Part shown: in pieces, positions 2,812 to 19,896 of the stretch
Position numbering within the stretch: the first letter of the stretch is position 1
Layout of the letters: every line of letters starts with the position of its first letter
Made by a program: the position numbers and the translations under genes
The notes under the pieces: model-generated
Told to the model about the DNA's origin: nothing
Database searches by the model: none
Seen by the model: only the letters and a program-made list of their open reading frames with translations
DNA from: Candidatus Scatosoma sp.
GTDB taxonomy: Bacteria > Bacillota > Clostridia > Christensenellales > Borkfalkiaceae
Direction of reading: 5' to 3'
Length of the DNA: 24,000 bases
Assembly (NCBI GenBank): GCA_045127595.1
Contig: JBGVQS010000027.1
Span: 42,447-66,446 of the forward strand

Positions 2812-2879
2812 AGAAAAACAAGCATATTTATATGCCCTTTGAAAATAGGATATTACGAGATTTATTTTCAGGGGGCTAT

Positions 2880-3617
2880 ATGAAAAAAAGAGTAAAATCG
2901 GTTGCGGATTTAAAGAAGAACGTTGTAACGAATTTGATTTTGAGTGTTTTGGTGCTTTCGGTTGGCGCGTTATGCCTTGCTCCCGATCGCAGCGAAATAA
3001 CGACGAAAGGGGAAACGGTGGTATACCGTTCCGCGGACGGTTCTTCGGGTGGCGTGTCCTTAATGTTCAACGTGTATTGGGGAACGGAAGAAGTTTACCG
3101 CATTTTGGATATTTTAGACGAACACGGCGCAAAATCGACCTTCTTTATCGGCGGGTGCTGGGCGGACGATAACGTCGAATGCTTAAAAACGATTGCCAAA
3201 CGTGGGCACGAGCTTGGCAATCACGGCTACTTTCATAAAGACCATAAAACTCTTGGTGTTACGGATAACCAACGGGAAATTTCCGAATGCAACCGTTTTA
3301 TCGAACTTGCAACGGGGATAAAACCGACGTTATTCGCACCCCCCTCAGGTTCATACGGGAACGATATGCTTACGGCGTGCTCCCTTTTGAAGCTGAAAAC
3401 TATTTTATGGTCAAAAGATACGATCGATTGGCGGGATAAGGATTCATCGCTCATTTATACCCGTGCGACAAAAAACGTAAAAAGCGGCGATTTTATCTTG
3501 ATGCATCCGATGAAAGAAACGGCGGATGCGCTCAATGATATTTTAAAATATTATGAAAAAAATTCTTTGAAAGTCATTACCGTATCAGAGAATTTGCAGG
3601 AGAATACAGAAAAATGA
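2880..3617 (+). CDS. Polysaccharide deacetylase (NodB-homology) family protein, YlxY/PdaB-like sporulation type, with N-terminal signal anchor
   Basis: NodB-like blocks STFFIGGCW, GHELGNHGYFH, LFAPPSGS and ILMHP are present. I moved the start to ATG 2880 because a GGGGG RBS sits at 2871-2875 and a K-rich n-region plus hydrophobic segment follows; ATG 2832 has no RBS. The deacetylase-then-M16-peptidase order matches my recollection of B. subtilis ylxY-mlpA. Confidence 0.8.
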   Translation: MKKRVKSVADLKKNVVTNLILSVLVLSVGALCLAPDRSEITTKGETVVYRSADGSSGGVSLMFNVYWGTEEVYRILDILDEHGAKSTFFIGGCWADDNVECLKTIAKRGHELGNHGYFHKDHKTLGVTDNQREISECNRFIELATGIKPTLFAPPSGSYGNDMLTACSLLKLKTILWSKDTIDWRDKDSSLIYTRATKNVKSGDFILMHPMKETADALNDILKYYEKNSLKVITVSENLQENTEK

Positions 3618-4852
3618 TCAACGAAAAAAAATACCCCAACGGATTGCGTTTGGTGGTAAAACAAATGCAGGGCTTACTGTCGGTAACGATGGGGATACTC
3701 GTCGGTACGGGCGGCGGTGCGGAAACGGATTCAGAAGACGGTATTTCGCATTTTATCGAACATATGCAATTTAAAGGCACGCAAAAACGCAACGCCTTTG
3801 AAATTTCCGACGCGTTCGATCGCATAGGTGCGCAAGTAAACGCATTTACGGGCAAGGATCTTACTTGTTATTATTCCAAATGCACAACCGACCATACGGC
3901 GGCATGTTTCGAGCTTTTATCCGATTTGTTCCTGTACGCCACTTTTCCCGAAGAAGAAATGGAGCGTGAAAAAGGCGTTGTTTGCGAAGAAATTTCAATG
4001 AACGAGGATTCACCTGAGGATTTATGTTTGGATTTACTTTCTCGCGCGTTTTACGGCACGAAAAATTATGGGAGAAACATTCTCGGTCCAGCTAAAAACG
4101 TAAAGGGCTTTACCGTTTCCGATATTCAACGGTATAAAAAGGCGCGGTATTGCCCTGAAAATATCGTTATTTCCTTTGCAGGCGGAATCGATATGCAAAC
4201 GGCGCAAGCGCTTGTGGAAACGTACTTTGTGGATTTACCGCAAGGGGAATACGAAGAAAGAAAACCGCAAATAACGTTTGCGCACCAGTCTTTGGTTAGA
4301 AATAAACCGATTGAACAAATGCATCTTGCCATTGCATATCCTTCCGTGCGCCGTGGAGACGAACGGGAAGATACGGTCAGCGCGTTGAACGGTATTCTCG
4401 GCGGTTCGATGAGCGCTCGTTTATTCCAAGAAGTACGCGAAAAACGCGGGCTTGCCTATTCGGTGTATTCCTATACGTCGTCTTTTCCTGAATGCGGTTC
4501 ATTGAATATTTACGCGGGCGTGAACCCTGCTAACGTAGGACAGGCATACGACGCGATTTGCAGCGTTATTAAGGAAATGCAGGAAAAGGGGATTACAGAA
4601 GAAGAATTTCTTCGTAGCCGTGAACAAATGAAGTCGGGACTCTTTTTCAGCAGCGAAAGCAGCAATGCGCAAATGCTTTTGTACGGAAAATATATGCTGT
4701 ATTTCAATAAAATTTTTGATTTTGAAGAAAAATTAAATAAAATCAATCAAATGACCTATCAAACAGCGCAGGAAACGCTTGCGACGATGTTTGATGAAAA
4801 ACAAAAGGCTTTGGCGCTTGTGGGCAATACGGATACGCCGTTATCATTCTAA
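3614..4852 (+). CDS. M16 (pitrilysin) family zinc peptidase, MlpA/YmxG-like
   Basis: Inverted zinc motif HxxEH (HFIEHMQFKG). 412 aa, typical of a two-domain M16B protein. Its start overlaps the upstream gene by 4 nt (ATGA). Confidence 0.9.
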   Translation: MINEKKYPNGLRLVVKQMQGLLSVTMGILVGTGGGAETDSEDGISHFIEHMQFKGTQKRNAFEISDAFDRIGAQVNAFTGKDLTCYYSKCTTDHTAACFELLSDLFLYATFPEEEMEREKGVVCEEISMNEDSPEDLCLDLLSRAFYGTKNYGRNILGPAKNVKGFTVSDIQRYKKARYCPENIVISFAGGIDMQTAQALVETYFVDLPQGEYEERKPQITFAHQSLVRNKPIEQMHLAIAYPSVRRGDEREDTVSALNGILGGSMSARLFQEVREKRGLAYSVYSYTSSFPECGSLNIYAGVNPANVGQAYDAICSVIKEMQEKGITEEEFLRSREQMKSGLFFSSESSNAQMLLYGKYMLYFNKIFDFEEKLNKINQMTYQTAQETLATMFDEKQKALALVGNTDTPLSF

Positions 4853-5993: not shown

Positions 5994-8162
5994 ATGGACA
6001 TTTTACAAACGATTACACAAGAATTTAATTTAAAGCCTATCCACGCGCAAAATATTGTTTCCTTGATCGATGAAGGGAACACAATCCCTTTTATCGCGAG
6101 ATACCGTAAAGAAATGACGGGTAGCTGCGACGACCAAGTGTTGCGTGAATTTTTTGATAGATTGACCTATCTTCGCAATCTTGAAAAACGTAAAGAAGAA
6201 GTAACGAACGCGATTACGGAGCAAGGAAAAATGACGGATGATATTCGCGCGGCTTTGGGAAAAGCGGTTACGCTTACTGAAGTGGAAGACATTTACCGCC
6301 CCTATAAGCAAAAGAGAAAAACGCGCGCTTCGGTGGCGATTGCAAAAGGTTTGCAGCCGCTTGCCGACGCAATTTTGGCGCAGGATAAAACGCTCGACGT
6401 ATCAGCGGAAGCGGAAAAATATTTATCCGACGAAGTTCCTACCGTAAAGGACGCGATCGACGGGGCGCGTGATATTATTGCGGAAATTATTTCCGACGAC
6501 GCGCAAACGCGTAAAAAGCTTCGTAATTTCTTCTTTAAGCACGGGGAAATTTCTTCCGTATACGCAAAGGGAAAAGAAGCGGAAGACGAAGTAAAAACCT
6601 ATGGAATGTACGCAGAGTATTGCGAACCCATCAGCGAAGTAAAAAGCCACCGCATTCTTGCGCTCAACCGTGGAGAAAAGGAAGAATTTTTAAAGGTATC
6701 CATTGTTGTAGATGAAGAATTTGCAAAGCGTATTACCGCGGCGAGCTTTTTAAAAGACGGCGGCGAAAGCAGCAAGATTGTTAAAGAAGCCGCGGAAGAC
6801 GGGTATACTCGCTTGATTGCGCCTTCGGTAGAACGAGAAGTCCGTGCGCAGCTTTTTGACGATGCAAGCGAGCAGGCGATTAAAATGTTTGAATTGAATT
6901 TGAAACCGCTTTTGATGCAACCGCCCGTCAAGGATAAAATTACGATGGGTTGGGACCCTGCGTTTAGAACGGGCTGCAAAATTTGTGTTGTAGACGGCAC
7001 GGGCAAGGTGCTCGATAAAACGGTTGTGTTCCCCACGCCGCCGCAAAATAAAACAGCGGAAGCGAAAGTCGTTTTAAAACAGTTGATTGCGAAACACGGG
7101 GTAGAGGTCATTTCTTGCGGAAACGGCACGGCGAGCAAGGAAAGCGAAATTTTTATCGCGGAATTGATTAAAGAAATCAAGGCGGAAACAGGCCACGAAG
7201 TCGGCTACGTAATCGTAAATGAAGCGGGCGCGTCCGTGTACTCGGCAAGCGCACTCGGCGCGGAAGAATTCCCCGATTACGACGTTACGGCAAGAAGTGC
7301 GGTATCGATTGCAAGACGTTTACAAGATCCGCTTGCGGAATTGATAAAAATCGATCCGAAATCCATCGGCGTTGGTCAATATCAGCACGATATGAATGAG
7401 AAACGTTTGGACGGTGCACTTTCGGGGGTTTTGGAAGATTGCGTAAACAGCGTTGGTGTGGATTTGAACACCGCGAGCGTTTCGCTTTTGAAATTTGTTG
7501 CGGGGCTCAATTCTTCCGTCGCGAAAAATATCGTTGCGTACCGAGAAGAAAACGGTCGTTTTAAATCGAGAAAACAGCTTTTGAAAGTGCCTAAACTCGG
7601 TGAAAAGGCGTATACGCAATGCGCAGGGTTCTTACGTATCGACGGCGGTGAAAATATCTTGGATAATACCGCAGTACACCCCGAATCGTACGCAAAAGCT
7701 GAAAAATTATTGTCCTTGTTCTCTTATACCAAAGAAGACGTAAAAGCAAGAAGAATTTCCGATTTACGCCAAAAGATTAAAGCATACGGGGAAGAAAAAG
7801 CTGCAAAAGAAACGGAACTTGACAGCGCGACCCTTTCGGATATTGTAACTGAACTTATGAAGCCAGGCAGAGATATTCGTGAAGGTTTGCCTGCGCCTAC
7901 ACTTCGCAAAGATATTATGGGTATTGAAGATTTACGGGTCGGAATGGAGCTTACCGGCACGGTACGTAACGTGGTAGACTTCGGCGCATTTATCGATATC
8001 GGCGTGCATCAAGACGGCTTGGTACATATTTCCGAAATTACGGAACGATACATTAAACACCCGTCGGAAGTTTTAAAAGTAGGGCAAATCGTGCAAGTTT
8101 GGGTAAAAGAAGTAGACGTTAAAAAGAACCGTATCGGGCTTACGATGAAAAAGAAAAAGTAA
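5994..8162 (+). CDS. tex: Tex-like transcription accessory protein (YqgF/HHH/S1 domains)
   Basis: 722 aa. The N-terminus has NTIPFIARYRKE. A central RuvC/YqgF-like region and an HhH region are present. The C-terminal S1 domain reads GTVRNVVDFGAFIDIGVHQDGLVHISE. Confidence 0.93.
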   Translation: MDILQTITQEFNLKPIHAQNIVSLIDEGNTIPFIARYRKEMTGSCDDQVLREFFDRLTYLRNLEKRKEEVTNAITEQGKMTDDIRAALGKAVTLTEVEDIYRPYKQKRKTRASVAIAKGLQPLADAILAQDKTLDVSAEAEKYLSDEVPTVKDAIDGARDIIAEIISDDAQTRKKLRNFFFKHGEISSVYAKGKEAEDEVKTYGMYAEYCEPISEVKSHRILALNRGEKEEFLKVSIVVDEEFAKRITAASFLKDGGESSKIVKEAAEDGYTRLIAPSVEREVRAQLFDDASEQAIKMFELNLKPLLMQPPVKDKITMGWDPAFRTGCKICVVDGTGKVLDKTVVFPTPPQNKTAEAKVVLKQLIAKHGVEVISCGNGTASKESEIFIAELIKEIKAETGHEVGYVIVNEAGASVYSASALGAEEFPDYDVTARSAVSIARRLQDPLAELIKIDPKSIGVGQYQHDMNEKRLDGALSGVLEDCVNSVGVDLNTASVSLLKFVAGLNSSVAKNIVAYREENGRFKSRKQLLKVPKLGEKAYTQCAGFLRIDGGENILDNTAVHPESYAKAEKLLSLFSYTKEDVKARRISDLRQKIKAYGEEKAAKETELDSATLSDIVTELMKPGRDIREGLPAPTLRKDIMGIEDLRVGMELTGTVRNVVDFGAFIDIGVHQDGLVHISEITERYIKHPSEVLKVGQIVQVWVKEVDVKKNRIGLTMKKKK

Positions 8163-10256: not shown

Positions 10257-10263
10257 TTCGACA
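10257..10263 (-). promoter_or_regulatory. Consensus 0A box (TGTCGAA) upstream of spo0A
   Basis: The + strand reads TTCGACA, the exact reverse complement of the B. subtilis Spo0A-binding consensus TGTCGAA. It lies about 95 nt upstream of the predicted -10. Confidence 0.4.
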
Positions 10264-10266
10264 ATA

Positions 10267-10328
10267 TTTTACAATATTATTGAAAAATAGTCATAAAATA
10301 TTAAAAAATATTTTTCAATATTGTAAAA
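10267..10328. repeat. AT-rich imperfect inverted repeat in the spo0A upstream region
   Basis: The left arm TTTTACAATATTATTGAAAAATA (10267-10289) pairs with the right arm TATTTTTCAATATTGTAAAA (10309-10328) apart from a 3-nt indel. The octamer ACAATATT occurs at 10261, at 10271 and inverted at 10317. Confidence 0.6.
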
Positions 10329-10334
10329 TAATGC

Positions 10335-10363
10335 TTTACAGTTGGGATTTTTTGTTGTATAAT
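10335..10363 (+). promoter_or_regulatory. Sigma-A-type promoter for spo0A
   Basis: TTTACA (10335-10340), 17-nt spacer, TATAAT (10358-10363). An AAGGAG RBS precedes ATG 10408. Confidence 0.5.
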
Positions 10364-10407
10364 AGAAACACTTCCATTGGAAAAGCAAAGAAAAAGGAGT
10401 AGAAAAT

Positions 10408-11169
10408 ATGCGTACGAATTCAATCGTAATATTAGAATTAAACGCGGCTGTATTAGAGCAGTTAAAAGAAGCGTTAAGCAATCATGAAGAATTCAAAATT
10501 TTATATGCGGGCGACGATGGAGACGAAGGCATCAAAAAGATATTGCATCTAAAGCCTGATCTTGTGATTACGGGTATGTTTTTAAAGGGAACGGACGGTT
10601 GCGGAGTAATACATACGGTTAAGAAAACGTGGGCGGACGCAAAAATTATCGCAACGGGCGCACCGAACGATTCGCTCATTGAGCGCGCAATGAATGAGGG
10701 TGCGGCGTATTATTTGGTGAAACCGTTCAGTATTGACGCAGCGATAGAACGTATCCGTGATATTTTGAAAGAGAAAAATGAAAAGAATAAAAACGTGGCG
10801 ATTGGAAGGCGTAAAGCCGTTACGATTGATGAAAAGATCAGTGAAATATTTATTTCGATCGGAATTCCGCCGCATATCAAAGGTTACGGATATTTGCGCG
10901 AAGGGATAAAAATGACGATTGAACGTCCGAATATCATCAATAGCGTTACGAAGGAGCTATATCCATCGATCGCGAAGCGGTTTTCTACGACTTCGAGCAA
11001 AGTGGAGCGTGCCATTCGGCATGCGATAGAAGTGGCATGGAATCGCGGGAGAATTGACGCGATTAACGCTATATTTGGCGCAAGGATATATTTGGGTGCG
11101 GAAAAACCAACGAACAGCGAATTTATTGCGCTCGTTGCGGACAAATTGATTTTAGAAAATATGTTATAA
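10408..11169 (+). CDS. spo0A: Sporulation master regulator Spo0A homologue with an atypical (Asp-less) receiver domain
   Basis: The C-terminal Spo0A-specific DNA-binding domain is present: GIPPHIKGYGYLREGI, SKVERAIRHAIEVAWNRG, KPTNSEFIALVADKL. The N-terminal CheY-like receiver retains the conserved Thr (IIATGA) and Lys (LVKPF). Confidence 0.9.
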   Translation: MRTNSIVILELNAAVLEQLKEALSNHEEFKILYAGDDGDEGIKKILHLKPDLVITGMFLKGTDGCGVIHTVKKTWADAKIIATGAPNDSLIERAMNEGAAYYLVKPFSIDAAIERIRDILKEKNEKNKNVAIGRRKAVTIDEKISEIFISIGIPPHIKGYGYLREGIKMTIERPNIINSVTKELYPSIAKRFSTTSSKVERAIRHAIEVAWNRGRIDAINAIFGARIYLGAEKPTNSEFIALVADKLILENML

Positions 11170-11172
11170 AAG

Positions 11173-11200
11173 AAGAACGGCTGAAAAACAGCCGTTCTTT
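11173..11200 (+). terminator. Hairpin terminator after spo0A
   Basis: 11-bp stem AAGAACGGCTG (11173-11183) / CAGCCGTTCTT (11189-11199) with loop AAAAA. The T-tail is short and partly inside the stem. Confidence 0.55.
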
Positions 11201-11227
11201 GACGTTGTAGCCTTTAGCGGAAAACAA

Positions 11228-11246
11228 CCACCACTTGAAGTGGTGG
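11228..11246 (+). repeat. Left-end subterminal hairpin of the IS200-type element
   Basis: Perfect 7-bp stem CCACCAC/GTGGTGG with loop TTGAA. Confidence 0.7.
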
Positions 11247-11270
11247 AATAAAAAATGCTTTAGCAAAAGT

Positions 11271-11331
11271 AATCCTCCTGTGTTATAATAAAGTGGGTTT
11301 GCCGACCACAAATAAACAACACAGGAGGATT
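11271..11331 (+). promoter_or_regulatory. 14-bp perfect inverted repeat able to sequester the tnpA Shine-Dalgarno; the loop carries a putative tnpA promoter -10
   Basis: AATCCTCCTGTGTT (11271-11284) pairs with AACACAGGAGGATT (11318-11331), and the right arm contains the AGGAGG RBS 5 nt upstream of ATG 11336. TGTTATAAT (11281-11289) is an extended -10 that starts in the left arm and runs into the loop. Confidence 0.6.
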
Positions 11332-11335
11332 AGTC

Positions 11336-11806
11336 ATGACTGACACAAATAGTTTATCACATACCAAATGGAATTGCAAGTATCATATCGTATTTTGTCC
11401 AAAATATCGTAGACAAGAAATATACGGTAAGATAAAAGAAGACGTAGGGAAGATACTTCGAAAATTGTGCGAAGCGAAAGGAGTAGAAATTATAGAGGCG
11501 GAAGCATGTCCAGACCATATACATATGTTGGTGTCAATACCGCCCCATTTGAGCGTAGCACAATTTATGGGATATCTGAAAGGTAAAAGTTCACTGATGA
11601 TTTTCGATAGGCGCGCAAACTTAAAATACAAATACGGAAATAGGCATTTTTGGTGTCGTGGGTATTATGTAGATACAGTAGGCAGAAACGAAAAGAAGAT
11701 ATCGGAATATGTAAGGAATCAGTTGCAGGAAGATATAGTAGCCGACCAACTGAGTTTGAAAGAATACATAGACCCGTTTACGGGTAGCAAGAATAGCAAG
11801 GCATAA
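11336..11806 (+). CDS. tnpA: IS200/IS605 family Y1 (HUH) transposase TnpA
   Basis: 156 aa. It has the block SHTKWNCKYHIVFCPKYRR, the HUH motif (PDHIHMLVSIPP) and the C-terminal catalytic Tyr region (SEYVRNQ). Confidence 0.93.
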   Translation: MTDTNSLSHTKWNCKYHIVFCPKYRRQEIYGKIKEDVGKILRKLCEAKGVEIIEAEACPDHIHMLVSIPPHLSVAQFMGYLKGKSSLMIFDRRANLKYKYGNRHFWCRGYYVDTVGRNEKKISEYVRNQLQEDIVADQLSLKEYIDPFTGSKNSKA

Positions 11807-11811
11807 AAAGA

Positions 11812-11931
11812 CAGCCGCTTTAGCGGCTGCCTGAGATAGTTTGCGGTTGGCAAACCTTTCAATGAGCCTTTAGGCTCAGCCAGTATTATGCCCTTGAAGG
11901 GCCAGTGCATACCACCAGTTGAACTGGTGGT
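11812..11931 (+). repeat. Array of five consecutive stem-loops forming the IS right end
   Basis: The stems are 11812-11829 (CAGCCGC/TTTA/GCGGCTG), 11839-11855 (GTTTGC/GGTTG/GCAAAC), 11863-11878 (TGAGCC/TTTA/GGCTCA), 11890-11902 (GCCC/TTGAA/GGGC) and 11911-11931 (ACCACCAGTT/G/AACTGGTGGT). Confidence 0.7.
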
Positions 11932-11951
11932 TTTGATTTAATTGTTTTCAA

Positions 11952-13603: not shown

Positions 13604-13891
13604 TCAGTCTTCTACGATTGCCAAAATATCGCTTTGCTTGATAATCGTAAATTCTTTACCATTTACTTTAAAATTAGAACCTGCATAATTTGCGCAAAGT
13701 ACTTTGTCGCCGACTTTTACCTGCATAACGATTTCTTTGCCGTCGATAATACCGCCCGGACCTACTGCTACAACTTGGCAGGTTTGGGGCTTTTCTTGCG
13801 CGGAAGTAGGGAGAAAGAATCCACTTTTCGTCTTTTCTTCCGTCGTAACGCTTTCAACGACTACTTTGTCAAATAAGGGTTTGATATTCAT
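13604..13891 (-). CDS. groS: Co-chaperonin GroES (10 kDa)
   Basis: 95 aa beginning MNIKPLFDKVVVE. It sits 23 nt upstream of groEL on the same strand, with a GGAGGA RBS. Confidence 0.95.
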   Translation of the reverse strand: MNIKPLFDKVVVESVTTEEKTKSGFFLPTSAQEKPQTCQVVAVGPGGIIDGKEIVMQVKVGDKVLCANYAGSNFKVNGKEFTIIKQSDILAIVED

Positions 13892-13945
13892 AATGTATCC
13901 TCCGATATTGCGGTAAAAAAACCGCCGATTTTTTTATACGAATAT

Positions 13946-16750: not shown

Positions 16751-17464
16751 ATGATTTACGATATTGCAGGTCTGCGGATAAAAATTGAAAATCAATATTC
16801 TTTCACGGATAATTTTTGCAAAGCCTACCTTTCGGAAGATCAATCTTCCCCCAGTGATATTATTGCTGCGGTAACCCAAGAAGAATTTGCGGAAGAAAAA
16901 GAAAAAAGCGAAGGTTTTTCAGACGGATATATTGAAAATATTTGTTTGTATCGCTCGATTTGTTTGCAACTTCCCAAATTTAATCGTATGCTTTTGCATG
17001 CAGCGATTCTCGAATGCGACGGAAGCGGTTATGCATTTTTAGGGAAAAGCGGCACGGGGAAATCTACGCATACGCGATTGTGGTTACAGTATTTACCGCA
17101 ATCCTTTATTGTAAACGGCGACAAACCGATTTTAGAATTTACGGATCATGGCGTTTTTGCCTACGGTACGCCTTGGATGGGAAAAGAACGTTTCGGCAGG
17201 AATACGAAAACGGAACTGAAAGGGCTTTGCTTTTTAGAACAGGCGAAAGAAAATTCAATCGAAAAATTATCCGTTACAAAAATTGCGGCAAGATTATTCA
17301 TTCAGATTCTTTTGCCGACCGAAGAAAAAGCGGCTACGCGGACGTTAGAACTCGCAGACGAGTTGGTGATGCGCGTGCCGGCGTACTTATTGAAATGCGA
17401 TATTTCCGAAAAAGCGGTTGCAACGTCTTACGAAGCATTGACGGGAAAAGCTTATAACATTTAA
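16751..17464 (+). CDS. HPr kinase/phosphorylase C-terminal-domain-like P-loop protein (HprK-related)
   Basis: LLHAAILECDGSGYAFLGKSGTGKSTHTRLWLQYLPQSFIVNGDKPIL lines up with the HprK block LHGVL..YGVGVLITGxSGVGKSExALEL..RGHRLVADD..EI as I recall it. The protein is 237 aa and has no other recognisable domain. Confidence 0.6.
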   Translation: MIYDIAGLRIKIENQYSFTDNFCKAYLSEDQSSPSDIIAAVTQEEFAEEKEKSEGFSDGYIENICLYRSICLQLPKFNRMLLHAAILECDGSGYAFLGKSGTGKSTHTRLWLQYLPQSFIVNGDKPILEFTDHGVFAYGTPWMGKERFGRNTKTELKGLCFLEQAKENSIEKLSVTKIAARLFIQILLPTEEKAATRTLELADELVMRVPAYLLKCDISEKAVATSYEALTGKAYNI

Positions 17465-17483
17465 AAAAATACGGAGGAAACGT

Positions 17484-17747
17484 ATGAAGATAAAAAAAGG
17501 ATTTGTTGTTCGCGTTGTTGGCGGCGAACACGTTGTCGTACCGGTTGGGGAACTTAGCAAAACCTTTCACGGTATGATCAATTTAAACGGAACGGGCGCG
17601 TTTTTATGGAATTTCTTCACGCAGGATCATACGGTAGAAGAAGGCGTTGAAGCACTTTGCGCTGAATACGACGTTGCGGAAGAAAGAGCAAGAGAAGACG
17701 TGGAACGTTTTGCACAAATTATAACGGCGAACGGATTTACGGAATAA
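17484..17747 (+). CDS. PqqD-family protein (RiPP recognition element-type peptide chaperone)
   Basis: 87 aa. The pattern LNGTGAFLWNFF...TVEEGVEALCAEYDV..ERAREDVERFAQIITANGF matches the PqqD pattern (LN.tg..iW..l....t.eei...l...y.v....a..Dv..fl..L...g). A GGAGGA RBS is present. Confidence 0.75.
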   Translation: MKIKKGFVVRVVGGEHVVVPVGELSKTFHGMINLNGTGAFLWNFFTQDHTVEEGVEALCAEYDVAEERAREDVERFAQIITANGFTE

Positions 17748-18214
17748 TGGAAGCACAGCAAACAAAAAATATAGAAAGCGTACTTTTGGAAAAGGGCGTG
17801 TATATTGGTCCAACCGTTGGGGTAAGTATGCTACCCATGCTAAAAAATAGGCGGGATACAATCGTTGTTCGTCCCAAAACGGGAAAATTGAAACCGTTGG
17901 ACGTTGCGCTTTATCGGCGCGGAGAAGCTTACGTTTTGCACCGTGTTTTGCGGCCGACGGATAGCGGATATATTATCCGCGGCGATAATTGCTATTCCGA
18001 CGAAAACGTGCCGGAAGATTGCGTAATCGGCGTTTTAACCGAGTTTTTCCGTAAAGGAAAGCATATTGATTGTACGGACGAAAAATATATCGCTTACGCA
18101 AAAAGACGTGTGAAAACTTATAAATTTCGCCGTTTTTTTGTATTATTAAGAATGCGAACCGTCGGATTAATAAAGAAAATTGTAAGAGTTTTTATTAAAA
18201 AGAAAAAGGACTAA
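17747..18214 (+). CDS. S24/S26-family serine peptidase, ER/SipW-like Ser-His signature, no predicted TM segment
   Basis: It has box-B-like GVSMLPML, box-D-like YVLHRVL (His where bacterial SPase I and LexA have Lys) and box-E-like RGDNCYSDE. The start overlaps the PqqD stop (TAATG). Confidence 0.65.
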   Translation: MEAQQTKNIESVLLEKGVYIGPTVGVSMLPMLKNRRDTIVVRPKTGKLKPLDVALYRRGEAYVLHRVLRPTDSGYIIRGDNCYSDENVPEDCVIGVLTEFFRKGKHIDCTDEKYIAYAKRRVKTYKFRRFFVLLRMRTVGLIKKIVRVFIKKKKD

Positions 18215-18216
18215 TT

Positions 18217-19896
18217 ATGAAAAAGGCAAAAGGCAAAGCAAAACTTTGGTTGAATAGAGAGATGCGCCCTTATCGCGTGTCTATTTTATCTTTGACCGTT
18301 TTGGGCTCGATTGCCACTCTTTCTACGTTGGCTTTTGCGTATTTGGTTCGTTATTTGATAAATACTGCGGCAGACGGTGATAAAAAGCTCTTATGCATTT
18401 TTTCCGCCGTTGCACTGGGGCTTTTACTACTGAAAATTTTTATTAGGACGTTTGATTCCTATTATGCAGAGAAATTGCGTTCAAAAATGGTTTCATCCTT
18501 GCGTACAAAAACATTTTCAAGGGTTTTACGCTCGGAATATGCAGGCTTGCAAGGGTATCACAGCGGAGATGTTTTAAACCGCTTAACTTCTGATATAAAC
18601 GAAGTTACGGTAGATACGGTAGGTTTTTTGCCGACTGTAACGGGCATGATTTTACAGTGTGTCGGCGCGGTAGTTGCATTATTGACGATTGATCCTTTGT
18701 TTACGTGTATATACGTGGTTTGCGGATTGATTTTTGGCGGCCTTGCAACACTGTTTAGAAAACGAATTAAAAAATGTCATAAAGAAGTCATGGAAGCAGA
18801 CAGCGCGTTCCGTGCGTTTATGCAAGAAAGTTTAGGCGCTACTATGACCTTAAAGGCATATGGTGCGGAAGGGCGTGTGGAAGAAAAAACGGCTCAAATC
18901 GCCACGGAATATTACGAAAAACGCAAACAAAGAAATATTTTGCGGGCAATAATGAGCGGTTTATTCAGCTTATTGAGTAATTTTGGGTTAATTTTTGCCA
19001 TTGTTTGGTGCAGTTTTAGCGTTTTAAAGGGCAATAACGATTTTGGCTCTATTTTATCCGTTATTTTGTTATTGATGCAATTCCAGCAGCCTTTGACTGC
19101 TTTTTCGTCCGTTTTGCCTGTATATTATGCTCGATTAGCAAGCGCGGAACGCATTTTAGAATTAGAAGAAATTCCTAAGGAAGATTTAATTTCTCAAGAT
19201 GATAATGCGGCTGATTATGAGAACTTACAGGAAATCGTCTTTGAAAATATTGATTTTTCCTACGGCCGTGAAATTATTTTTGAAGATGCAAGTGTTCGGT
19301 TTAAGAAAAAGGAAATCATATGCTTGACGGGTATGTCGGGGGCAGGCAAAAGCACGATCTTTAAGCTATTGATGAGCATTTATAAACCGAATAAAGGGGG
19401 AATTTTGTTGTTGGGGACATTTGACGGCGCGGAAAAAATTCCTTTAAATGAAACTTCTCGTGCTTTATTTGCCTACGTTCCGCAGGGGAATTTTCTCTTT
19501 TCAGGAACGATTTATGAAAATATAAAATTTTTTGCTGAAGAACAAAAAGAGGATAAACTTTTGCAAAAAATCAAACAAGCCCTTTCTGCGGCTTGTGCGG
19601 ACTTTGTTTGGGAATTGCCTGACGGCTTGCAAACCTCTTTAAACGAAGGCGGGGCAGGGCTTTCCGAAGGGCAGTTGCAACGTCTTGCCGTCGCGCGTGC
19701 ATTGTTGTCCGAACGTCCTATTTTGCTTTTGGACGAAGCTACGTCGGCACTTGACGCGGATACGGAAAAAACGTTGCTTGAAAACATTAAAAACTTTACG
19801 GATAAAACCTGTTTAATCGTTACACACCGTCCTGCTGCATTACATATTGCCGACCGTATCATTACGATCGAGAACGGTAAAATTCGAGCAAAATAA
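18217..19896 (+). CDS. ABC exporter, fused permease-ATPase (type I exporter half-transporter)
   Basis: 559 aa. The N-terminal TMD has about 6 hydrophobic segments. The NBD has Walker A GMSGAGKST, signature LSEGQLQRLAVARAL, Walker B ILLLDEATSALD and H-loop IVTHR. There is no C39 peptidase domain. Confidence 0.9.
   Translation: MKKAKGKAKLWLNREMRPYRVSILSLTVLGSIATLSTLAFAYLVRYLINTAADGDKKLLCIFSAVALGLLLLKIFIRTFDSYYAEKLRSKMVSSLRTKTFSRVLRSEYAGLQGYHSGDVLNRLTSDINEVTVDTVGFLPTVTGMILQCVGAVVALLTIDPLFTCIYVVCGLIFGGLATLFRKRIKKCHKEVMEADSAFRAFMQESLGATMTLKAYGAEGRVEEKTAQIATEYYEKRKQRNILRAIMSGLFSLLSNFGLIFAIVWCSFSVLKGNNDFGSILSVILLLMQFQQPLTAFSSVLPVYYARLASAERILELEEIPKEDLISQDDNAADYENLQEIVFENIDFSYGREIIFEDASVRFKKKEIICLTGMSGAGKSTIFKLLMSIYKPNKGGILLLGTFDGAEKIPLNETSRALFAYVPQGNFLFSGTIYENIKFFAEEQKEDKLLQKIKQALSAACADFVWELPDGLQTSLNEGGAGLSEGQLQRLAVARALLSERPILLLDEATSALDADTEKTLLENIKNFTDKTCLIVTHRPAALHIADRIITIENGKIRAK

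Follow-up and report, generated by a model that had tools for sequence, protein, structure and literature searches.

Spo0A is the textbook response regulator in which graded aspartate phosphorylation decides cell fate, and models of sporulation initiation in both Bacilli and Clostridia start with kinases or a phosphorelay feeding aspartate 56 (D56). What, then, can a Spo0A do that has no aspartate to phosphorylate? The question is raised by a gene at positions 10408 to 11169 (plus strand) of a 24,000-nucleotide (nt) stretch of DNA from Candidatus Scatosoma sp. (contig JBGVQS010000027.1, positions 42,447 to 66,446 of the forward strand), the whole of which is referred to here as the window. The answer that we favor, with a probability of roughly 0.65, is that the gene encodes an orthologous and functional Spo0A that operates without aspartate phosphorylation, binds tandem 0A boxes in its own promoter region, and is set by its level, by some other input to the receiver domain, or by both.

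The open reading frame (ORF) is intact and specifies 253 amino acids followed by a stop codon. Its product scored 227.2 bits against TIGR02875, the NCBIfam equivalog model for Spo0A (cutoff, 200), and Pfam assigned residues 6 to 116 to Response_reg (PF00072; 7.9e-13) and residues 144 to 247 to Spo0A_C (2.9e-40), with 104 of 104 positions of the PF08769 profile being covered. In phmmer, the C-terminal half hit 1LQ1 and 1FC3, two solved structures of the Spo0A DNA-binding domain, at 1e-38, the window helix SKVERAIRHAIEVAW and B. subtilis SRVERAIRHAIEVAW being nearly identical in these alignments and the recognition helix being close to identical to the B. subtilis Spo0A helix in 1LQ1. An AlphaFold2 model, built from 53 homologs with a mean predicted local distance difference test score (pLDDT) of 79.7, contains a regular (beta/alpha)5 receiver (pLDDT of 79 to 92 per 10-residue block) and an all-helical C domain, joined by a linker that is disordered at residues 124 to 135 (pLDDT of <50). 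Foldseek aligned the N domain with many solved receivers (template modeling score, 0.87 to 0.91) and the C domain with 1LQ1 and 1FC3 (root mean square deviation, 1.2 to 2.0 A). From these results, and from the substitution rates given below, the protein was divided into a pseudo-receiver with an intact fold (REC; residues 4 to 121; 10417 to 10770), a Lys/Asn-rich linker of low complexity and low pLDDT (residues 122 to 139; 10771 to 10824), and the Spo0A_C DNA-binding and transcription activation domain (residues 140 to 253; 10825 to 11166), all on the plus strand. A preliminary description drawn from the sequence had called the ORF intact and its C-terminal half Spo0A, and both statements hold. 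The protein thus has the C-terminal domain, the whole-protein score, and the receiver fold of Spo0A; it departs from the family in the acceptor Asp and the acidic pair, and as a receiver fold with no phosphorylatable Asp it also falls among the aspartate-less receivers (ALRs).

The acceptor site was placed by three independent ungapped alignments, made with phmmer (against chain 6er7, a CheY from an archaeon), with MAFFT (against B. subtilis Spo0A), and with a hidden Markov model (HMM) of our own built from 33 fully canonical Spo0A representatives. All three put Gly56 (GGT; 10573 to 10575, plus strand) at the phospho-acceptor position and Glu10-Leu11 (10435 to 10440, plus strand; GAA at 10435 to 10437 and TTA at 10438 to 10440) at the position of the metal-binding acidic pair, canonically Asp-Asp. 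In the HMM alignment, "vlivDDnk" stands against "IVILELNA" of the window and "dvlilDiimpklDG" stands against "DLVITGMFLKGTDG," both with high posterior values. Thr83, the conserved Thr that ends beta4 (10654 to 10656, plus strand), is retained in the MAFFT alignments, and so is Lys105 of the K-P-F motif (10720 to 10722, plus strand), which is invariant in 120 homologs and in 81 members of the clade described below. The preliminary description had read the same Gly, Glu, and Leu codons and had noted the surviving Thr and Lys, and the HMM, as a profile-based check, likewise finds no Asp at the acceptor position. It had also counted at least two nucleotide changes between the Leu codon and Asp: the Leu is there, but a derivation from Asp does not stand. 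Leu11 is peculiar to the window species, its relatives carry Ser at position 11, and TTA is a single step from the Ser codon TCA, so that Leu11 derives from Ser. Because the acceptor Asp and the acidic pair are both missing, we infer that phosphorylation of this Spo0A on Asp by kinases or a phosphorelay is impossible.

Neither a sequencing or assembly error nor a decaying pseudogene accounts for the missing Asp. An identical protein was assembled in eight independent contigs from different samples, which excludes an assembly error, and thousands of homologs came up when 5.8 billion proteins were searched. Among the best 120 of these, aligned at 74 to 99% identity, the acceptor position is Gly in 75, Ser in 44, and Asn in 1; position 10 is Glu in 119 and position 11 is Ser in 107, and Thr is found at position 83 in 99, with Met or Ile in a subclade. 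When each GTDB species was represented by a single genome, 80 loci were obtained, no assembly contributing more than one; they show 54 to 80% identity, are mostly of ruminant, chicken, and human gut origin, and are labeled Candidatus Scatosoma sp., Ca. Gallimonas, "Clostridia bacterium," "Christensenellaceae bacterium," and others. The acceptor is Gly, Ser, Asn, or Ala in 77 of these 80 loci, down to 54% identity; the Asp-Asp pair occurs in none, position 10 being Glu or Asp, and the pair Glu-Ser (E-S) occurs in 72. Across 81 clade members, position 10 is Glu in 77 and position 11 is Ser in 72. The ratio of nonsynonymous to synonymous substitution rates (dN/dS), calculated by the Nei-Gojobori method for 41 pairs with dS values of <1.2, has a median of 0.115 in the receiver and 0.033 in the DNA-binding domain, which means purifying selection on both domains. 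With eight contigs, hundreds of like homologs, an intact frame, dN/dS values of 0.03 to 0.12, and a syntenic slot, promoter, and 0A boxes that are conserved, the probability of error or decay is negligible; the preliminary description had rightly argued against a single sequencing error, and the copy is not decaying.

Codon usage speaks to the age of the change. Acceptor codons in the 81 clade members are GGN (47), AGY (28), GAY (3), AAT (2), and GCA (1); Gly is written with all four of its codons and Ser always with AGY, and single-nucleotide steps connect the Gly, Ser, Asn, and Asp codons at this site. For Ser11, both codon families, TCN and AGY, are in use. Taken together, the four Gly codons, the AGY-only Ser, and the two-family Ser11 point to an Asp-less state that is old, tolerated, and selected. 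The same data bear on whether phosphorylation has moved to another residue, for instance, by a Hanks-type kinase acting on Ser56 or elsewhere. Ser is common at the acceptor position (44 of the 120 homologs and 28 of the 81 clade members), and Ser/Thr kinases modify atypical regulators of the RitR type. In most of the clade, the window protein included, the acceptor residue is Gly, which is not phosphorylatable, and Gly, Ser, Asn, Ala, and Asp replace one another by single-nucleotide steps, which looks like tolerance of small residues and not like selection for a phospho-site. We therefore consider phosphorylation elsewhere very improbable, and Ser56, which is not universal in the clade, was discarded as a substitute site. 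Three loci do bear an Asp at the acceptor position (L045, L048, and L049); in a neighbor-joining (NJ) tree they are nested inside the Asp-less clade, and they have an E-S pocket and Ile in place of Thr83, all of which speaks against a retained phospho-site. On this pattern, a neutral change of one step is the likelier origin of their Asp.

Where does the Asp-less protein stand within the Spo0A family? A search of 1.84 billion representatives clustered at 50% identity gave 865 proteins with E values of 1e-30 or less, and the pocket was scored in the 112 full-length proteins among the best 150 of these, a set biased toward relatives of the query. The full canonical site (DD/D/[ST]/K) is present in 32 of the 112; Asp56 is kept beside an altered acidic pair in 56, and the acceptor is other than Asp (Gly, Glu, Asn, Ser, Ala, Gln, or Tyr) in 24. 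The Asp-less clade is monophyletic in the NJ tree; its nearest neighbors have the pair E-R, E-H, or E-S with Asp or Asn at the acceptor position, all of the nearest relatives have degenerate pockets, and identity to even the nearest representatives with a full canonical site is no more than about 45%. A second search, made with the sister-clade protein P0124, matched proteins from metagenome-assembled genomes (MAGs) only: E-R with Asp in 50, followed by Q-R, E-N, A-N, V-R, and others. These sister proteins are encoded in the same slot, linked to a gene for an ABC-F ATPase, which identifies the genes of the clade and its sisters as orthologs. Since the sister pockets are E-R, Q-R, E-N, or A-N and mostly retain Asp56, the loss looks to have been stepwise, the acidic pair having probably gone first and the acceptor Asp second. 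Only 32 of the 112 representatives being fully canonical, degeneration of the receiver in the Spo0A family may be far commoner than cultured organisms indicate. The same family contains other rearrangements: P0123, P0125, P0127, and P0128 consist of three or four tandem Spo0A_C domains with no receiver (Pfam, 1e-94 to 1e-121), P0132 is REC-REC-Spo0A_C, and P0152 has two receiver and two Spo0A_C stretches. In such tandem-domain proteins, the tie between the Spo0A DNA-binding module and a single phospho-receiver is undone in still other ways.

The low dN/dS of the receiver, about 0.1, implies that this domain does something, and a position-by-position comparison of the 81 clade members with the 33 canonical Spo0A proteins indicates where. 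Near-invariant and specific to the clade are L9, E10, S11, G41, F58, L59, K60, G61, G84, D88, and E118; G38, D63, G64, G98, Y101, K105, and P106 are common to both groups, and the closer homologs all have Tyr102 at the aromatic switch position. Clade-specific changes are concentrated in the loops of the former active site (beta1-alpha1, beta3-alpha3, and beta4-alpha4). The beta3-alpha3 loop is Phe58-Leu59-Lys60-Gly61 in the window protein (10579 to 10590, plus strand), with clade frequencies of 0.91 for F58, 1.00 for L59, 0.93 for K60 (otherwise Arg), and 0.96 for G61, where canonical Spo0A reads I/M/P/x; Lys60 thus stands in the place of a conserved Pro. Judged by these patterns of conservation, the former active site appears to have been rebuilt and then frozen and not to be drifting, and a charge network of E10, K60, D88, and K105 may stand in for Mg2+ and the phosphoryl group. 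In one subclade (L002, L003, L007, L020, and L024), three replacements occur jointly (Met for Thr83, Gly for Val104, and Ile for Phe58), suggesting that residues around the former active site have repacked to compensate. A redox switch at Cys65 was considered and rejected, as the position varies among Cys, Ser, Phe, Leu, Ile, Tyr, Thr, and Ala.

The region upstream of the gene suggests how such a protein might be controlled. A putative 0A box, TGTCGAA (TTCGACA on the plus strand), lies on the minus strand at 10257 to 10263, and a degenerate second box, TTTTACA on the plus strand (10267 to 10273; five of seven matches), is located 10 bp away, the pair spanning 10257 to 10273. Within the window as a whole, the 7-mer is not found above chance (3 occurrences versus 4.3 expected). 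Related loci supply the evidence: of 74 such loci, 60 have a perfect TTCGACA, always in one orientation, at 112 to 187 nt (mostly 131 to 175 nt) before the start codon, against a background expectation of 0.053 per 300 nt, and a second box with no more than two mismatches is offset by exactly 10 bp in 43 of 61 regions, compared with 7 of 366 at control offsets. In 1LQ1, the dimer of Spo0A C domains is reported to bind DNA in this same head-to-tail manner, spaced by one helical turn. Beyond the boxes, a strong sigma-A-type promoter, TTTACA-17 nt-TATAAT, occupies 10335 to 10363 on the plus strand (11 of 12 positions in a consensus scan), and TTTACA-N17-TGTAGTATAAT, comprising the -35 and extended -10 elements, is kept across 58 aligned loci. 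Just 5' of the -35 element is a conserved AT-rich block, AATATTGTAAAATAAT (10317 to 10332, plus strand; consensus AATATTGTAaAA-tAaT in the 58 aligned upstream regions), which could be an UP element or the site of a second regulator. The stretch that separates the promoter from the 0A boxes contains an imperfect inverted repeat (10270 to 10289 and 10309 to 10325). The ribosome-binding site AAGGAG (10394 to 10399, plus strand) is 8 nt 5' of the ATG and has a GGAG core that is conserved in the aligned upstream regions, and a GC-rich hairpin with an 11-pair stem containing 6 GC pairs follows the stop codon (11173 to 11199; terminator scan, minus-strand score). This hairpin probably terminates transcription in both directions, serving spo0A and the convergent groEL gene alike in strains that lack the IS200 insertion described below. 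Promoter, ribosome-binding site, terminator hairpin, and upstream 0A box had all been proposed in the preliminary description and were found. A second member of the regulon was sought and rejected: an 0A box that appeared to lie upstream of a dCMP-deaminase gene in 9 of 20 loci sits inside the Phe-Asp-Lys (F-D-K) codons of groES and thus reflects coding constraint and not a binding site. At the groES start (window positions of about 13880 to 13900, minus strand), these codons read TTCGACAAA, a perfect 0A box, in many relatives and TTTGACAAA in the window.

Our favored explanation can now be put as a mechanism. The lineage's own orthologous Spo0A would have had its receiver turned into an aspartate-less pseudo-receiver; the remodeled site (Glu10, Lys/Arg60, Asp88, and Lys105) would lock this receiver in one dimerization-competent conformation, with no phospho-switch; a head-to-tail Spo0A dimer would autoregulate its own gene by occupying the tandem boxes in front of it; and activity would be set mainly by the amount of protein made. 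The earlier proposal that the protein is either constitutively configured or otherwise regulated follows from a profile alignment with no Asp, the Asp-less relatives, the eight contigs, and the low dN/dS. Several considerations weigh on the other side. The lack of phosphorylation is deduced from the residues that are missing, and the E10-K60-D88-K105 network is drawn from conservation only; the interdomain arrangement in the AlphaFold2 model is unreliable (predicted template modeling score, 0.49); and among approximately 80 gene families neighboring spo0A in Asp-less genomes, a small sample with conserved synteny, none is sporulation specific. Thr83, Tyr102, and Lys105 are kept, so that the pocket could still bind an anion or other ligand and switch. 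This last point leads to an explanation in which the pseudo-receiver remains a switch, responding to a small anionic ligand or a protein partner at the remodeled pocket or at the alpha4-beta5-alpha5 face, as other atypical response regulators are switched by a ligand or partner. The invariance of Lys105 and Tyr102, the general retention of Thr83, the strict conservation of the former active-site loops as the most clade-specific part of the receiver, and the receiver dN/dS of about 0.1 are all in its favor. The conserved neighbors, however, are housekeeping genes (ABC-F and groEL) that hint at no partner, and the substitution of Met or Ile for Thr83 and of Gly for Val104 in one subclade shows that the classical Thr/Tyr coupling is not universal. 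On balance, we regard a surviving ligand or partner switch as unlikely, though it is the most serious competitor to a locked, level-controlled Spo0A.

A further consideration on that side is that the Asp-less protein might be a paralog, acting beside a canonical, phosphorylatable Spo0A encoded elsewhere, as its heterodimer partner or as a competitor for 0A boxes. Spo0A paralogs are found in 11 of 118 Spo0A-positive genomes (10.1101/2022.02.25.481979), and the data analyzed here are loci and not whole genomes. Each of the 80 GTDB assemblies nevertheless yielded a single locus of the Asp-less type, in the ABC-F-linked slot that also holds the only type of Spo0A seen in the sister lineages; the protein passes the TIGR02875 equivalog cutoff, and the nearest relatives by NJ are all degenerate, canonical representatives being about 45% identical at closest. 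A paralog working beside a canonical Spo0A consequently seems to us improbable, less so than phosphorylation at another residue but more so than a ligand-responsive receiver.

The gene neighborhood is consistent within the clade and bears on whether these organisms sporulate. The ABC-F ATPase gene lies upstream of spo0A in 65 of the 80 loci, and in the sister lineages as well; groEL and groES are convergent downstream in many loci, with groEL directly following spo0A in one of them (L081). A spoIVB gene directly upstream is the typical, if not strictly defining, context of spo0A; no spoIVB or Peptidase_S55 gene was seen upstream of spo0A in the loci compared. Neither spoIIIA nor any other sporulation-specific domain was present in the polA-coaE-glgBCDA-glgP region of the 286-kb Scatosoma contig of L006, which was reached via GlgD homologs, and a tblastn search of the collected loci with the SpoIIIAA-AD proteins of sister lineages gave no match; extension of the window from the genes at its edges led to short contigs only. 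That no sporulation genes turned up around Asp-less spo0A is no more than a weak negative finding. In sister lineages, a spoIIIA operon (Spore_III_AA, SpoIIIAC, and Spore_III_AE) is located 8 to 10 kb downstream of spo0A (at 17025 to 20768 in L093, also in L094, and at about 20760 in L090 and L091), and the Spo0A proteins of these lineages have an A-N or E-R pair with Asp56 kept. The proximity of spo0A and spoIIIA presumably echoes the B. subtilis arrangement, and the presence of the operon indicates that the wider group has not discarded the sporulation machinery despite a degenerate Spo0A pocket. A bolder proposition is that an order-level radiation of gut Clostridia (Scatosoma and Gallimonas with their E-R, Q-R, E-N, and A-N sisters) has uncoupled Spo0A from His-Asp phosphotransfer while some of its members still sporulate. 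We think this doubtful; if it were true, sporulation in these bacteria would be entered without a kinase or phosphorelay, under the control of transcription and autoregulation of an always-competent Spo0A or of another input to the pseudo-receiver.

Other features of the surrounding DNA can be recorded briefly. The convergent groEL and the spo0A terminator hairpin are separated by an inserted IS200/IS605 transposase gene, tnpA (11336 to 11806, plus strand; NF033573, 1.8e-46), with a hairpin beside it at 11227 to 11246 (within 11200 to 11950 of the window); L081 encodes an identical Spo0A but has no IS200, so the insertion is recent and strain specific. In L043, a 22-residue fragment that is 91% identical to Spo0A residues 232 to 253 is encoded at 7909 to 7974, some 4 kb downstream from the intact copy, and is probably a rearrangement scar. 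At 2832 to 4852 of the window, a polysaccharide deacetylase gene is followed by an M16 peptidase gene; the deacetylase is matched best in NCBIfam by YlxY and PdaB, which are of the sporulation type, both below the cutoff. The order is presumably that of the B. subtilis ylxY-mlpA pair, and the segment may be left over from a locus once linked to sporulation. A cassette resembling those for ribosomally synthesized and posttranslationally modified peptides extends from 16751 to 19896 and contains genes for an ScmC-like protein (16751 to 17464), a 155-residue protein of unknown type (17747 to 18214), and an ABC exporter (18217 to 19896); a PqqD-family protein belongs to the same cassette, seen as an 87-residue gene product in L081, and the cassette is kept in 22 to 32 related loci. 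On the 286-kb contig of L006, five consecutive minus-strand genes without Pfam matches (104, 114, 499, 187, and >397 residues) follow the glycogen operon (L099, 17224 to 21113).

An Asp-less Spo0A that is kept under selection means that the DNA-binding module can be retained and used without Asp input, and it offers a natural experiment on what the receiver contributes beyond phosphorylation. It is also a caution for MAG pipelines that take the presence of spo0A as sporulation potential, and it provides a possible route by which to ask what triggers sporulation, or any other process under Spo0A control, in uncultured gut Clostridia. Published predictions for putatively related uncultured taxa differ: Ca. 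Borkfalkia has been predicted by gene content to form spores (PMC6839795), and most Christensenellales MAGs have been predicted to be nonsporulating (PMC12536801). Scatosoma is reported to be among the abundant genera in the guts of Tibetan antelope and gayal (PMC12990503 and PMC12862909).

Set against canonical Spo0A (B. subtilis and C. difficile; 1QMP, 1DZ3, 1FC3, and 1LQ1), the window protein has the same architecture of REC and Spo0A_C, a DNA-binding domain that is 58% identical with nearly the same recognition helix, TGTCGAA boxes upstream of its own gene, and the Thr, Lys, and aromatic switch residues. It differs in having neither the acceptor Asp nor the acidic pair, and thus no site for a phosphorelay or orphan kinases, in the replacement of the Pro at D+4 by Lys, in having an ABC-F gene and not spoIVB upstream, and in a shorter linker (253 versus 267 residues for the whole protein). 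Two laboratory forms of Spo0A dispense with phosphorylation on Asp, namely, the isolated C domain, which is active without it, and Spo0A-sad67, reportedly a phosphorylation-independent form described by Ireton and colleagues in 1993. In both, part or all of the receiver has been removed and inhibition relieved, whereas the window protein keeps a complete receiver; being kept and selected, that receiver must add something positive, such as dimerization, stability, or another input.

Natural parallels are of two sorts. The preprint of Galperin et al. in 2022 reports Spo0A in 32 of 42 nonsporulating Clostridia and makes no mention of phospho-acceptor loss, only a Macrococcus copy being called "highly degraded" (10.1101/2022.02.25.481979); the Spo0A of such non-spore-formers shares with ours a doubtful sporulation status and vertical inheritance, and the window gene is not degraded. 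The ALRs and other atypical response regulators (HP1043, ChxR, RitR, FrzS, and C. difficile CmrT) likewise join a conserved Asp-less receiver fold to a DNA-binding output. Seven ALRs were counted among 391 Response_reg~Spo0A_C sequences in S6 Table of Maule et al. in 2015, and Glu was the commonest ALR replacement, at 26% (PMC4395418), in contrast to the Gly or Ser of the window clade. That table entry was the sole trace in our full-text literature searches, which turned up no paper discussing a Spo0A without an acceptor Asp. Asp-less Spo0A has thus been counted previously and never described, and here it proves to extend through a whole lineage of orthologs, to be held by purifying selection, and to be preceded by conserved tandem 0A boxes. 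The window protein nonetheless establishes no new category: it combines two known kinds of protein, Spo0A and the aspartate-less receivers.

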